From NCBI GenBank assembly GCA_036785375.1, contig JAWMAR010000399.1, positions 868,001 to 932,000 of the forward strand: a DNA stretch of 64,000 nt. The letters run 5' to 3'. How positions within the stretch are numbered: the first letter of the stretch is position 1; every line of letters starts with the position of its first letter. The position numbers are program-made. The stretch is from Leucoraja ocellata. Lineage: Eukaryota. Shown here piece by piece: positions 18,001 through 63,000 of this stretch.

Positions 18001-21000
18001 TATGTGTCACAATTTTGCAGCCCTCAGTGCACAGTATGTATTTGCAGAGGCCTGATTTATCTTCGGAACTCACAGTGGATTGCCCTGCATGTCAAAGCAA
18101 CAGGAATTATGCTTCATCAATGTGTTAGATGGATATAAAAATGAACAAAAGTCATATTTCAAGCAGGGAATACACTAGGAGTCACCCCTCATTCTGCAGA
18201 AACGACATCACCACTACATTGCCACTGATATTATTAACGCCAAAATGTTTCTTCAGCCCATACACTAGTTAGCTACTGTTAAACCCTGTGGATTTTGATG
18301 CTGTTTGCTGTCAAAATATATATAATATACAAAGACATGTACAAATATGTATTGGGCAATTCCTTTGCAAGGTTTGTAGACTGCTGTTGAACTGTGTTTT
18401 CTTCACCAGGCAAGCTCTATGCAATGGGAAGAGGACATCACAAACTAGAAAGAGCAGTGGGTCATTGGCAACACTGGAACCGCATCTCCACAGGACATGA
18501 GATGAAGGCCCAAGGAACTGCAGATTTTGGTTTACAAAAAAAGACTCAAAGTGTTGGAGTAACTCAGCGGGTCAGGCAGAATCTCTGGAGAACATGGATA
18601 TGTAACATTTCGGGTCAGGACTCTTATTCAGATGGATTGTGGTGGATTTTGGAGATGCAGACGTGTAGGCAAAGGTCAGAACGTGCAAGAGAAAAGGATT
18701 CATGAGTTGCGAATCGTGAGGCTAGAGGAAGAAATGTCAGTGGAAGTGGAAGTGGTAGAGATAAGTGCAAGTCTAGGTGAGGCACAAGCGATAGAGGGGG
18801 GGAAGAAAGTGGAAGTGGGGGGAGAAAGGGGAGGATGGGCAACGTGGTGGTGGTGGGGGGGGGGAACTTTTGTAGTTATCTAAATATGAGGAGATGACTA
18901 TTTCCCCAGAAAGTACGTGATCGGATATGTACAATTAACCTTGGAGATGGGAGGACAGATGTTTTCCCAAGCAAAATGTGTCTGTAATTATTTGCCATTC
19001 ATTGCCAATGAATGCTGCTGCCATTCTCAGCATGAGATCATGGATTACATCACAATCTGATGTTGCTGCTGAGAACAACTTGAAACAGTTCTATTCTGGC
19101 ACTATTTCTATTTTGGATGAACCCGTTGCCTGTGGCGCATCTGTAGAGGTTGGTGAGGGTTGTTGGGGACATGTCAAAATCCCAAGCCTTCTAAGGAAGT
19201 TATTGTTCATCCTTGGCTACTGCGTCATTGTGGCTGGTCCATGACAAAATGTTGAGGAATTAAGAACTTTAAAAAAAAAATCTTTAAAAAAAAATCTAGG
19301 ATAGAAATACATTTCTACAATTTGTTGTATCATCTGGTTGACATATGTATTGGAGCAACACAATCTGAGGCACTTTTAGAATTCAACTGCAGACAGCAAG
19401 AGTCATTGCACAAAATCTGTTTCTTTGCAACATGAATCTATGATAATTTATGATATTCCTTGCTATTTGTTTTACTGGCTTTATGATTCATGGCTTGTTA
19501 CCAGACTCAATGTTGTCTGTTCTGCTGGTGCCGGTCATTAAGGACAAAGCTGGTAAAGTAGGCAGACTAAATAATTACAGGCTTTAGCCAACATATTGTC
19601 AAAAGTCCTAGAAATAATTCTGCTGGATAGGTTAAATGAGTTAAATGAGATAACCAGTGTGGTATTAAAGCTAAACATGGCACTGACTTGTGTATATATG
19701 CCCTAAAGGAGATTGTAAACAAATATAGAGGTAAACACTCATCAATTCTTATGTGCTTTATTGATGCTTCCAAAGCCTTTGGTGATGTTAATCATGGAAT
19801 GCTCTTTGTAAAATTGAGTCACAGAGGGGTGCCTAAATACATTGTGAGAATTCTGGCTTACTGGTATGCCCACCAGACTATGCAAGTAAAATGGGGCAAT
19901 AGGGTCTCAGCCCCATTTGGGATGAGCACTGGTGTTAGACAAGGAGGAATTTTGTCCCTAGTCCTTTTTAATCTTTATATTGATGATGTGTCCAAGCAAT
20001 TGAAAGTCTGTGATACTGGGTGCATGATTGATAATACTTTAGTGAACCATATTATGTATATGCAGATGATCTTGTGGTCTTTAGTCCATCTAGCGCTGGT
20101 CTCCTGCAGCTCCTTACTATATGTTCTGTGTATGATGTGGAATATGATATCAAATATAATGCTGGTAAGAGTGCTGTTATGATCTGTAGATCCAAAGAGA
20201 GTAAATGTCTAAACTTTCCTGATTTTAAATTGTCTGACAATAATCTTAGTGTCTGTAATAAGGTCAAATATCTTGGGCATTTTATTACAGTACAAATGAC
20301 AAATGATAAGGATATTTATAAGCAACGTCATTTGCTGTATGTACAAGCGAGTATTCCCTTTCACAAGTTTGGTGCGTGTACAGATGTAGTGAAGATGTCT
20401 CTGTTCAGAGCATATTGTACACCACTTTATACTGCACACCTGTGGTCAAACTCCAGGGACTTAAAGTAGCGAATAATGATGTCATGAGAATACTACTAAA
20501 GAAACCTAGATGGTGTAGTGCAAGTCAAATGTTTGTGGCTGCAGGAGTCTGTACTTTACAAGCTATCCGAATAAATCATCTGTATCAATTTATTTGCAGG
20601 ATTTATGACTCCGAAAATGAAGTTATCTTGGTCTAATCAAACATAAGGTTTAGCACTACACTACCAATCCCAGCTGTGGACATTGGTATCGTTGTCTCAT
20701 TGTAGGACATGATCTTTCTTTTTATTCTGGATTTTAAATCATGTATTGCATTCTTGTGTATTATTTATAATGCTCTTATAAGTAATTTACTAAGCTTTTA
20801 TATGTATTTTATGGTGTTTTTATATGTAATGTATTCTGTGTAATGTCATCTTTTATCTGGACCTTGAGCCTGAAACAAAAGTTTAATTAGAAAATTAAAA
20901 TAATTTATGAATTAATTAATTGACACACTTACCAGGTAGCATTATTTGCCCGTCATTCTCACAGGTACATGTTGTAGTTCCTCTTGACGTTGGTGTTACT

Positions 21001-60000: not shown

Positions 60001-63000
60001 CACAACATTTACAGTATAAAAGTGTAGGTCCACATTGTGAGCAAACCTCTCTGATCAATGCTGCTGTCAAGCACAATGTAGGGGTGTTGAACTTTATCTT
60101 AACATGATGTTGCATTTAAGGAGCATTTGAGTCAAATATATCCTGTTGCTCAGTGGTTGCAAGGTAGAAGCCTCCAGTGATTTTAAACTATTAAGAGCTT
60201 CATCCACATCAACTCAAATGGAAAAAACTAAGAAAGCAGAAATATTCTATAATTTATGTTGACATGTTTAGAACTGTGCACCAAATTCATAATTAGATGC
60301 ATTTCTTTCTATAATCTGCACTTAGCAAGAGACAGATGAAGGTTCCATAGATGCTGCCTCACCCGATGAGTTTCACCAGCATTTTTGTCTACCCAAGAGA
60401 CAGTTGTAAAGCTCTTTCTTTGAAATGTGAACAGAAGAGCACTTTGATAATTGACACACTTACCTGGTGACATTATATGTCCATCAACATCACATGAACA
60501 GATTGTAGTTCCTTTTGACGTTGGTGTTACTGTCACTGTTGTAGCTGATGTTGTGGTTTCTGCTGGTCTGGTTGTAGTTTCACATCTTCCTGTGTACTTC
60601 AGAATTTCACAATCCTCAGTACACAGAGTAAAGTTACAGAGGTCTGATTTACCTGCAGAAGTCACAGTTGCCTGACCTGGAGGCAGAAGATAAAAATCAG
60701 GTTGTGTCCACCTGAAGGTGACGTAACTGATAAATACCTTTATGTATGATGTTGAATATGAGTATTTCGATTGTGCAGATTTTTTGAGGAGGCTCTAATA
60801 TAATTTCAATGAGTTTGTGTCAAGAATCAAGACATTCTGTCCCTCCCCTGAGAAAATATCAGTGTGTGTTTTCTTGTTGTAGCTTGTGGTTGGCAGGCCT
60901 TGCAAAATGGCAATGCCGATAGAATAGAAAAACTCAACACAGAATCCAGCAGAAAAGTTAATGGGAATTGCAGTAAGGTTGCTTAGTTCCGTCGTGTATT
61001 TTTGTGAAGAAATATCATTTACAGCGGGGCATGATCAGGTCCATAACACAGCCATGGGATCAGGTGGACCACAGAATTTCTAGTAAAGATGTGGGGGTTC
61101 TGATTTGTGTACAAACTTCTACTGATCAATGCTGCTGCTAATCTCACTGTAGGGATGTTGAGCTGTATCGTAATATGATGTTGCATTTAAGGAGCATTTG
61201 AACCAAATACATCCTGTAGCTCTATGGTTGCAAGGAAGAAGGTCGCATTGGAGCAATGAAAAACTTTGACCACATTAACTCAAACGGAAATTCATTGAAA
61301 GCAATAAGTTGCGATCATTTTTGTTAACGTATAGTATAATGCATCAGCTTCATAATCTAAAGCATTTCTTGCAATCATTTGCACATAGCTAAAGACTGAG
61401 GTCGACCTCTTACTTTGAAATGTGAACAGCAGAGCACTTTGATTACTGACACACTTACCTGGTGACATTATATGTCCGTCAACATCACATGAACAGATTG
61501 TAGTTCCTTTTGACGTTGGTGTTACTGTCACTGTTGTAGCTGATGTTGTGGTTTCTGCTGGTCTGGTTGTAGTTTCACATCTTCCTGTGTACTTCAGAAC
61601 TTCACAATCCTCAGTACACAGAGTAAAGTTACAGAGGCCTGATTTACCTGCGGAAGTCACAATTGCCTGACCTGGAGGCAAAGAAAAAAAAAATCAGGTT
61701 GTGTCCACCTGAAGGTGATGTAACTGATGACTATCTTTATGTATGAAGCTGGTTCATGCATTTCACTTGGGAAATAAGTTTGAAATATGCGAATATTATT
61801 TTGCCGACTGCATCAAGGATCATGATATTCTGAACCAAATCTGAGCAAACAGCATTGTCTGCATTTTTGGAGCTGGTTGGCAGCGGTTCTTCTAGTTCTA
61901 TCATTCATGCAAACAAACACAATTTATTTCAACTGGGTTGAATGGATACAAAAAATGGGAATCACATTTCCTTGATGGTGTTTGTCATTGGTTGCTTTTG
62001 GACATCGGTGCTTTCAGGGAACTGCTGGACTTGTAATTTCCAGACATTTCCCAGATATAGTGATGGCTCCTTAAGGACTCGTGTGTAGCTTAACATCAGA
62101 TCTCCAAATTCTCTTTCCAGACTCTTTAAGTTGCACAATATTCAAAGATTAATCTGAGATTTGGAACAACACCAACAGCCACCATGTTGACATACACACA
62201 CTAGGAGCAGGAACTGCCTCTCAATTCCAATCCACCAGTCATGGTGTTATACAGCATGGAAACTCATCCAAGCTAACCAAATTACCTAATTGAATGTCCC
62301 ATTTACCTGTGTTTGGCCCATAATCATTTGAAACTTTCCCATGCACCCACCTGCACAAATGTCTTCTAAGCCATACTTCAATTCCCACTATTATGATCTA
62401 ATTACCTAATATAACAGTTAATTTATTATATTATTAAACATTATTGTTTATTGTACATTTGTTTGTTGTATTGTTGTGTTTAATGTACCTATAAACCCTT
62501 AGGAAGTAACAATTTCAGTGTCCAGTCCTCGTGAATATTACAATTAAACAATCTCGACTTGATTTCTATGTTGTAATTATACCCTCCTGTACCACATCCT
62601 TTGGCTGCAAGCTCCACACACTCACCAGCCTTAAATGCATTTTTAATCCCTCTTTAGTTTAGTTTAGTTTAGTTTAGAGATACAGCACGGAAACAGGCCC
62701 TTTGGCCCACCGGATCTATGCTGACCAGCAATCCACGCACAATAATGTCCACTAGGGACATTTTCTACATTTTCCAAGCCAATTAACCAACAAAACTATG
62801 TCTTTGGAGTGTGGGAGGAAACCGAAGGTCTCGGAGAAAACCCACGATGGTCACGGGGTGAACGTACAAACTCCGTACAAATAGCACCCATAGTCGGGAT
62901 CGACCCCAGGTCTGTAGCGCTGCATTCGCTGTAAGGCAGCAACTCTACCACTGCGCCAATAAGGTCATGTCTGTTATATCTGTGATTCATTCGAGAATCA

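Follow-up and report, generated by a model that had tools for sequence, protein, structure and literature searches.

How does the gene of a gel-forming mucin come to hold a predicted 44 copies of a small six-Cys module that other vertebrate mucins hold once? The question is raised by a stretch of 64,000 nucleotides (nt) from the skate Leucoraja ocellata (assembly GCA_036785375.1, contig JAWMAR010000399.1, positions 868,001 to 932,000), called the window here and numbered from its own first letter. The window is the 3′ half of a skate MUC5-type gel-forming mucin gene on the minus strand, and it contains an array of 42 short exons between a Pro/Thr/Ser-rich (PTS) exon and the VWD4 assembly. We consider it likely that this is a single vertebrate module amplified in elasmobranchs to 42 tandem exons and two diverged ones, with a string of beads as the predicted product.

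We located the array by script, which gave 42 minus-strand exons of exactly 213 nt, or 71 amino acids (aa), with 61671-61459 as exon 1 and 21145-20933 as exon 42. An AG acceptor behind a pyrimidine tract and a GTAAGT donor flank every one of the 42, and all 42 have an open frame and encode six Cys residues. The sequence-only reading that preceded this work had proposed 42 open, six-Cys exons of this length, and the proposal held for the entire set with both splice signals in place. Two exon types, A and B, alternate along the array as listed below.

20933..61671, minus strand: array of 42 exons, 21 of type A and 21 of type B, phase 1 to 1
Exons 1-6, minus strand: 61671-61459 A; 60676-60464 A; 59714-59502 B; 59230-59018 A; 58276-58064 B; 57501-57289 A
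Exons 7-12, minus strand: 56908-56696 B; 56424-56212 A; 55470-55258 B; 54696-54484 A; 53734-53522 B; 52959-52747 A
Exons 13-18, minus strand: 51997-51785 B; 46134-45922 A; 45541-45329 B; 44783-44571 A; 44190-43978 B; 43432-43220 A
Exons 19-24, minus strand: 42839-42627 B; 42081-41869 A; 41491-41279 B; 40716-40504 A; 39754-39542 B; 38979-38767 A
Exons 25-30, minus strand: 38017-37805 B; 37242-37030 A; 36649-36437 B; 35876-35664 A; 35286-35074 B; 34511-34299 A
Exons 31-36, minus strand: 33549-33337 B; 32774-32562 A; 32181-31969 B; 31406-31194 A; 29377-29165 B; 28602-28390 A
Exons 37-42, minus strand: 28008-27796 B; 27233-27021 A; 25226-25014 B; 24451-24239 A; 22444-22232 B; 21145-20933 B

An exon encodes the four-Cys back half of one module, then a Thr/Ser/Pro linker of 27 residues, and then the CxC front half of the module that follows, and all 42 translations fit the pattern x12-C-x4-C-x3-C-x8-C-x27-CxC-x3-G-x4-P. 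The 44-residue module itself, CxC-x3-G-x4-PG-x12-C-x4-C-x3-C-x8-C, is split over two neighboring exons. Because an exon ends in CCA G/ and the next begins with GT (the slash marks the splice junction here and below), the Gly of the "PG" is formed across the junction. The linkers contain 14-18 Thr plus Ser per 27 residues, and Thr, Ser, and Pro together account for 67% of linker residues. The 44-aa module and 27-aa Thr/Ser linker had been described in the same terms from the bare sequence, and the accompanying claim that the modules lack WxxW was likewise confirmed, as none of the 42 exons encodes a Trp. A peptide named in that reading, SGLCNFVLCTEDCK, is present in 18 of the 42 exons. At residues 14-16 of the exon translation, all 21 A exons encode an NFT sequon that only one of the 21 B exons shares, type B having NFV or NFL, so that N-glycans are predicted on every second bead.

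An nhmmer profile recovered the 42 copies end to end, together with a truncated copy and the two diverged exons that flank the array. With 42 copies matched end to end, a chance pattern is not an issue, and there are no N bases in the window. Tandem Repeats Finder reported no array when run on the window, as it is limited to periods of 500 nt and the unit is longer; the array was defined by script instead. Rfam, at its gathering thresholds, gave no match in the window. We searched the gene model exon by exon and studied the whole module in database proteins that contain it. The antisense strand of the array exons is open too, with 75-residue Val-rich frames (e.g., 61443-61670, plus strand). 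Since the Thr codons of the sense strand are ACN-rich and splice signals are absent from the antisense strand, we take these frames as a by-product.

The exons on both sides of the array, which place it within the gene, are listed below with the evidence for each.

63617..64000, minus strand: 3′ end of the large PTS exon, running off the window and ending in a CxC half-module (..TTTCSCTVQGKILSP G/gt)
17866..18084, minus strand: exon 43, 219 nt long and phase 1 to 1, encoding diverged module sequence (..KSGLCKYILCTEGCKIVTHTRKC..linker..CFCKVNGKVISA G/)
16409..16593, minus strand: exon 44, 185 nt, phase 1 to 0, read by eye
14459..14633, minus strand: VWCN exon (VWC fold, precedes VWD4), phase 0 to 1, from a PDB sequence match
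11065..11309, minus strand: first VWD4 exon (..C SCIGWGGSHYITFDG..), from Pfam VWD at 4.6e-15 and tblastn
9293..9484, minus strand: second VWD4 exon (tblastn match bounds), from the C-terminal part of Pfam VWD at 3.5e-3 and tblastn with P0006/P0010
8226..8492, minus strand: end of VWD4 and linker to C8 (match bounds), from tblastn at 65% identity to P0006/P0010
7322..7510, minus strand: C8-4 exon (match bounds), from Pfam C8 at 1.4e-15 and tblastn
5841..6114, minus strand: two TIL-4 exons, matches 6114-6040 and 5936-5841, from tblastn with P0010
635..4711, minus strand: VWC-type exons, matches 4711-4388 and 943-635, from tblastn with P0006/P0010

Read by eye, the PTS exon terminates in ...CSCTVQGKILSP G/gtaatt with its donor at 63616-63615, and the frame at 63600-63998 is open and rich in Thr, Ser, and Pro. 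At the other end, exon 44 completes the last module, which is of the ancestral type, with its four-Cys half (..DKAGWCYIGLCTSKCEVVKHTIPC) and continues through a brief PTS linker into the first Cys stretch of VWCN, GCPDLHPPRA. The exon that follows matched the C-terminal structures of human MUC2 (7QCL, 7QCU, and 7QCN) with E 2.5e-11. "VWCN" is the name used for that MUC2 domain in an excerpt of PMC10082768. Judged by its position, the linker after the last module would correspond to the short linker named PTS3 in MUC2 (PMC12775068).

The reading phases run without a break from the PTS exon (ending in phase 1) through the 42 exons (1-1), exon 43 (1-1), exon 44 (1-0), and the VWCN exon (0-1) to VWD4. 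Two hallmarks of gel-forming MUC2/MUC5 mucins were found: a VWD4-C8-TIL assembly lies C-terminal of the PTS, as established by Pfam, PDB, and the exon order in tblastn, and a Pro/Thr/Ser-rich region is present at 63600-63998 and in the array linkers. The modules stand between the PTS and VWCN-VWD4, the place of the six-Cys module that precedes VWCN in other mucins. Pfam, PDB, tblastn, and the exon boundaries all bear out the earlier placement of the array between the PTS exon and the VWD4 assembly. The earlier arithmetic of 44 modules and 264 Cys (2 + 252 + 6 + 4) is also correct, given in-order splicing of every exon. The gene extends beyond the start of the window, and its cystine knot and N-terminal D1-D2-D′D3 region lie outside it.

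We then asked where else the module occurs, using 23 distinct 44-residue modules from database proteins as an elasmobranch profile. Via P0010, 120 homologues were listed, with nine rows without names and P0004, P0011, and P0012 left out of the profile scan. The profile found a match in 75 of the 120 proteins scanned. Among the 109 named non-elasmobranch models (MUC2, MUC5AC, MUC5B, or "intestinal mucin-like"), the profile gives exactly one six-Cys match in 49, more than one in 0, and no such match in 60. A VWD start lies downstream of the module in 39 of these 49, at a median distance of 103 residues, and the 60 residues upstream are 56% Pro/Thr/Ser. The sequence-only reading had described the module as single, after the last PTS, in other mucins, and the count of one copy in 49/109 models and more in 0/109 agrees.

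A reverse profile, built from 37 non-elasmobranch modules, scored exon 44 at 36.2 bits, exon 43 at 15.2 bits, and the 42 array exons at 9.1-18.8 bits (median 12.5). Since exon 44 scores far above the array exons, the ancestral-type copy is the last one, beside VWCN, and the amplified copies are derived. The skate modules have the 44 residues and the spacing CxC-x22-C-x4-C-x3-C-x8-C of the module that precedes VWCN, with 42/42 exons fitting its two halves, and their similarity to the single-copy vertebrate module was recovered by profile searches in both directions.

The elasmobranch profile also matched, end to end, a five-Cys stretch of 44 residues after D3 in P0006-P0008, scoring 15 bits versus a maximum of 6.3 in 300 shuffles. 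When aligned by hhalign, the six-Cys and five-Cys modules matched at 98.8% (E 7.6e-17, 44/44 columns), and the five-Cys module matched the first half of VWCN at 92% (E 6.8e-7, 27 columns); the sets were chosen by Cys spacing, which somewhat favors a match, and the non-Cys columns agree as well. Exon 44, in turn, matched the post-D3 module in human MUC5AC structures (9GVJ residues 1257-1311, E 5e-4). At the level of sequence, the six-Cys module is clearly a paralogue of the five-Cys post-D3 module. In MUC2/MUC5-type mucins, paralogous modules of 44 residues flank the PTS on both sides, one with five Cys behind D3 and the other with six Cys ahead of VWCN. In VWF chains, matching ends just before the five-Cys post-D3 module, which makes this module a mucin addition. 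We found no Pfam family covering the six-Cys module in the window exons or in three homologues (P0015, P0036, and P0071), and neither of the bracketing 44-residue modules has a Pfam model.

Arrays of the same module occur in other elasmobranchs. A word-index protein search with one array exon returned four proteins, P0001-P0004, and an exhaustive search of 1.84 billion representatives returned 10 proteins at E <= 0.001, with 20, 9, 4, and 3 matched stretches in P0005-P0008, respectively. A protein search with the VWCN exon for longer homologues gave one match, a 476-aa protein from Heptranchias perlo. Models referred to below include the following.

P0001: Narcine bancroftii "mucin-2-like", 17 copies
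P0003: Leucoraja erinacea LOC129705929, 96% identical, comprising three exons and read-through into an intron
P0006: near-complete mucin with three N-terminal VWD domains, PTS, 9-10 modules, VWD4, and the C-terminal end
P0015: Rhincodon typus "mucin-5B-like", with D1-D3, PTS, 4 modules, and D4

Three N-terminal VWD domains are found in P0006, P0007, P0008, and P0015, and the modules are joined to D4 within single gene models in P0010 (Scyliorhinus torazame), P0015, and P0006. Since P0007 is nearer to human MUC5AC (1709 bits) than to MUC5B (1581) or MUC2 (1420), we call the gene MUC5-type. The L. erinacea model contains one repeat that agrees residue for residue with the translated exon 14 of the window. 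The strict Cys pattern is kept in 16/16 repeats of Narcine, 19/19 of P0005, and 9 of P0006, with all Cys retained, and module-plus-linker repeats are found in rays and sharks at 42-69% identity, again with every Cys in place. CysD (PF13330) was absent from all four elasmobranch models scanned for it. In a tree of repeat units, which has few columns and an arbitrary root, the units grouped by source protein (10 label changes vs. a minimum of 9), and P0001, P0002, P0005, and P0006 each formed one starred clade. This clustering by source suggests separate expansions or concerted evolution in each lineage. Copy numbers in the other elasmobranch gene models are about 3-20, and the 42-exon window is the extreme of a design common to elasmobranchs. 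Copy counts from automatic models need care because two of the models are chimeric: in P0002 (Narcine), module repeats are joined to a DHHC-type protein and to unrelated segments that are themselves repeated, and P0008 has a transposon-like start and reads into introns.

These smaller numbers bear on a first alternative, that the exons are cassettes of which each mRNA takes a variable subset, so that splicing would set the length of the protein, with a bead number well below 44. Because the intron lies inside the module, at the PG turn, and all exons are phase 1-1, any in-order subset of exons rebuilds whole, in-frame modules, and copy number could be set by splicing too. The half-modules are interchangeable, skipping any number of exons preserves both frame and modules, and acceptors and donors are near-identical, which may leave exon choice loose. 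The public gene models of relatives, with 3-20 copies rather than 40 or more, would also fit, although short models are typical of automatic prediction on repeats as well. Against cassette use stands the perfect retention of consensus splice sites, frame, and Cys in 42/42 exons, a pattern to be anticipated when every copy is in at least occasional use; moreover, among 49 distinct derived variants there are no stops and no removed Cys (P ~0.011 under neutrality). Both readings fit these observations; cassette splicing seems to us a secondary and rather unlikely account.

The subtypes and introns bear on how the array grew. The exons form the order AAB(AB)x19 B, with type A ending in ..CSCDV[DN]GHIMSP and type B in ..CTCENDGRKMLP. 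Identity is ∼98% within a type and 85.5% between A and B, and 31 of the 42 exon sequences are unique. By length, the introns form classes: behind B exons these are 271, 545, and 562 nt, behind A exons 380 and 749 nt, and members of a class are ∼96.5% identical. When the window was compared with itself, higher-order repeats of up to 5.8 kb at 97.2% were found; the highest identity of any pair is 99.27%, over 3145 nt, short of 99.5%. Several introns also contain private insertions. Intron 13 (51784-46135) holds a ∼5-kb DIRS-like retroelement on the plus strand, antisense to the mucin. Introns 38 (at 25227-26350) and 40 (at 22445-23568) have in common a ∼1.05-kb insert that is 99.9% identical and was copied within a 2.8-kb duplication (99.27% identical), and intron 34 has, at 29856-30965, a separate, dissimilar insert of ∼1.1 kb. 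Neither of these inserts has further copies elsewhere in the window.

Near the 3′ end of the array, intron 41 contains a truncated 43rd copy, or pseudo-exon.

∼21950-21888, minus strand: truncated copy in intron 41, with polypyrimidine tract and AG acceptor kept

Its nhmmer match spans 21950-21850 (model positions 1-99, E 3e-14), the first ∼60 nt being A-like and the remainder diverged. The presence of this A-like copy in intron 41 explains the terminal B-B junction of the array. If paired with a nearby GTAAAT, the copy would shift the frame, and it is a possible decoy splice site.

The distinct intron classes and private insertions argue for repeated unequal crossing-over and against simple assembly duplication, which is the crux of a second alternative, namely that mis-assembly of near-identical repeats lengthened or shuffled what is really a shorter array. 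Tandem repeats that extend over 41 kb, with units that agree at 94-99%, are indeed hard to assemble. However, the identities between repeats stay below 99.5%, about three-quarters of the exons (the 31 counted above) are unique, introns 13, 34, and 38/40 carry their own insertions, the window has no N, and arrays of 17 and 20 copies exist in other records. An artefact of assembly is thus improbable in our judgment, and the array is treated here as a product of amplification in the genome.

Next, we considered the fold of the module. AlphaFold2, run on P0003 with a 5-row alignment, gave blocks with a predicted local distance difference test (pLDDT) score of 62-78 for the junction-spanning modules (residues 64-107 and 135-178) and of less than 40 for the linkers. 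In the model of each module, a beta hairpin leads into three strands, and the same strand order was predicted for P0009 at lower confidence. In a Foldseek search, the rows of highest probability (0.60-0.85) were pairs of fibronectin type I (FnI) modules, with E 0.04-0.36. The FnI fold consists of a hairpin and a three-stranded sheet with two disulfides, and the predicted strand order fits it at these Foldseek E values. For the model of residues 62-110 in the Atlas, the structural neighbors were clusters of mucin C-termini, chordin-like 2, VWCE, and plasminogen activator at template modeling (TM) scores of 0.62-0.73; an Atlas search by features gave no usable match. A predicted complex of two copies of one module (P0003 residues 62-110), run without controls, scored 0.02 against a mark of 0.32. 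A search of the P0003 sequence against PDB found nothing.

Other assignments were rejected. The Pfam and PDB matches of a single array exon (Crisp at 0.22 and antibody chains at 0.7) were dismissed as chance. CysD identity is ruled out by the lack of Trp in 42/42 exons and of any PF13330 match in the window exons. A complete VWC domain (PF00093; ten Cys, with CxxCxC and CCxxC) is ruled out by the six Cys, the lack of a CC pair, and the lack of a Pfam match, PF00093 matching neither an array exon nor the modules in P0015, P0036, and P0071. The module had been called VWC-like in the sequence-only reading. This description has only indirect backing: the five-Cys paralogue aligns with the first half of VWCN and the Atlas neighbors carry VWC, and the Pfam VWC model does not match. 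A half-VWC, FnI-like knot is offered from these models as a lead only.

The course of events that we favor starts from a single all-beta module with 44 residues and six Cys, which lies in vertebrate MUC2/MUC5 after the last PTS and before VWCN-VWD4, distantly resembles the first half of the VWC fold, and is paralogous to the post-D3 five-Cys module. In elasmobranchs, this module with a 27-residue Thr/Ser/Pro linker was amplified, here to the 42 exons of 213 nt and two diverged exons. Unequal crossing-over of A+B two-exon units of ∼1.35-1.74 kb, and of larger blocks, would account for both growth and homogeneity. The predicted product is a segment of ∼3,000 residues (∼2,980 for the spliced array), situated after the classical PTS brush and before the C-terminal dimerizing region, with short O-glycosylated spacers separating its 44 disulfide-knotted beads. 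The least certain step is function: the beads may interrupt the bottle-brush and offer small folded, partly N-glycosylated surfaces in a CysD-like role. As the four elasmobranch homologues scanned lack CysD and many tetrapod and teleost homologues have it, the beads may have replaced CysD. The sequence-only reading had suggested that such beads could alter cross-linking, protease resistance, or ligand binding of the mucus.

Several observations weigh against this account. Within the array, the fraction of variable columns in exons (0.085 in A and 0.141 in B) is close to that in introns (0.099-0.121), the ratio of nonsynonymous to synonymous differences (pN/pS) comes to 0.131/0.176 for the consensus of A against that of B and to 0.66 when pooled, and the truncated copy in intron 41 has a live-looking acceptor. 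Overall model confidence is low, with a mean pLDDT of 50 for P0003 and 42 for P0009, and Foldseek found nothing in PDB at E <= 0.001 for the bead model of 268 residues. The six-Cys profile aligned directly with VWCN at only 0.8% in hhalign, which is not significant. Copy counts come from automatic gene predictions that are possibly collapsed or chimeric, P0002 and P0008 clearly so. Lastly, many of the 60/109 non-elasmobranch models without a six-Cys match are fragments, and the module may have been lost or have diverged in some of these lineages.

Since the exons are as variable as the introns and pN/pS is high, the array would be young or homogenized, with weak constraint beyond Cys, frame, and splice sites. 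The Cys themselves are invariant: all 252 Cys codons of the array are TGT, and no Cys codon contains a variable column. The retention of Cys across species, in rays and sharks, is the stronger argument for use. The last alternative, a useless by-product of unequal crossing-over (dead exons in one large intron, or a pseudogene), draws on the similar exon and intron divergence, the high pN/pS (0.66-0.75), and the one truncated copy, but 42 copies without a stop, frameshift, lost Cys, or lost splice site, the same Cys-intact repeat in rays and sharks, and intact flanking D4 exons make it very unlikely.

With elasmobranch amplification as the preferred reading, a bolder version can be put forward, which we hold only tentatively. 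Elasmobranch MUC5-type mucins might have given up CysD for a second kind of bead, the half-VWC/FnI-like knot, in up to 44 copies in skates. Its number would be reset by unequal crossing-over and possibly exon skipping, and the beads would cross-link or bind ligands multivalently and so set the mechanical properties of skate mucus.

Compared with known systems, the closest is the single-copy module of MUC2, MUC5AC, and MUC5B, which has the same 44 residues, Cys spacing, and position as the skate modules. It differs in being present once rather than 44 times, and the skate copies are derived in sequence and each have their own 27-residue PTS linker. A "MUC11p15-type domain" lies upstream of the "A3uD4-like" domain of MUC5B in PMC6780288; the six-Cys module is probably this domain, by domain order only. 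The five-Cys module of MUC5AC, MUC5B, and MUC2 stands before the PTS, lacks the partner of the Cys pair in its last loop, and is not amplified. It is treated as belonging to the E-3 region, which is described as poorly ordered (PMC6739602 and PMC11933400).

CysD domains interrupt the PTS of MUC2, MUC5AC, and MUC5B and resemble the beads as small, disulfide-rich globules of variable number on O-glycosylated stretches. CysD is nonetheless a different domain from the 44-residue six-Cys bead, and the skate repeats are each split by an intron. A CysD domain is much larger than 44 residues. By Pfam annotation, CysD is present in many of the listed tetrapod and teleost homologues. An excerpt of PMC4948705 likewise describes CysD in tetrapod and teleost mucins, and the six-Cys module is not mentioned in that excerpt. 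The central regions of human mucins are encoded by one very large exon (PMC6780288), and a CysD-only fish "Mucin-5AC" cupula family is reported with 27 CysD for Amblyraja radiata (PMC11765562).

The module and the first half of VWCN have the spacing C-x4-C-x12-C in common. The skate module lacks the second VWC subdomain with its CC motif, so that the resemblance is one of fold and not of membership. The bead may share with FnI modules the predicted hairpin and three-stranded sheet, with Foldseek E values that are not significant. In the integumentary mucins of frogs, the Cys-rich domains are TFF modules (PMC7177656); there too a small Cys-rich module is a folded element of a gel-forming mucin, and the module family differs. 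Mucin-5B and mucin-2-like proteins are reported from shark skin mucus in PMC10707392, an excerpt of which gives nothing on architecture.

The array is a real genomic feature within gel-forming mucins, and we did not find it described in print: the literature searched, which did not extend to supplementary domain diagrams of related papers, contained no description of it. The sequence-only reading had not recognized the architecture as described. That judgment stands for papers and falls for databases, where public gene predictions (Narcine bancroftii and Rhincodon typus) already contain the design, so that it is undescribed in the papers searched rather than unseen.

Mucin gels depend on the interruption and cross-linking of glycosylated brushes, which in mammals is ascribed to CysD. 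The skate window points to a second solution in an old vertebrate lineage, made from a module that other vertebrates keep single and unnamed beside VWCN. It also draws attention to the paralogous 44-residue pair that brackets the MUC2/MUC5 PTS outside the coverage of Pfam. Copy numbers of 1, 4, ∼10, 17-20, and 44 form a natural series for probing the effects of the beads on gel strength, protease resistance, and binding. In addition, the exon phases illustrate how a folded domain can be amplified, and possibly variably spliced, without ever being broken: the intron lies within the module, and every array exon is phase 1-1.

The DIRS-like element in intron 13 is intact-looking. Its parts, identified by Pfam searches on the frames, are as follows.

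46516-51108, plus strand: DIRS-like element with three long open frames
46694-47674, plus strand: frame 1, without a Pfam match
48032-50140, plus strand: frame 2, RVT_1 at 1.3e-19 and a weak Dam-methylase-like match
50134-51108, plus strand: frame 3, Phage_integrase (tyrosine recombinase) at 3.9e-7

A second, broken retroelement lies between the array and exon 43 (19649-20469, plus strand), where two overlapping frames match RVT_1 at 2.4e-13 and 6.2e-6.

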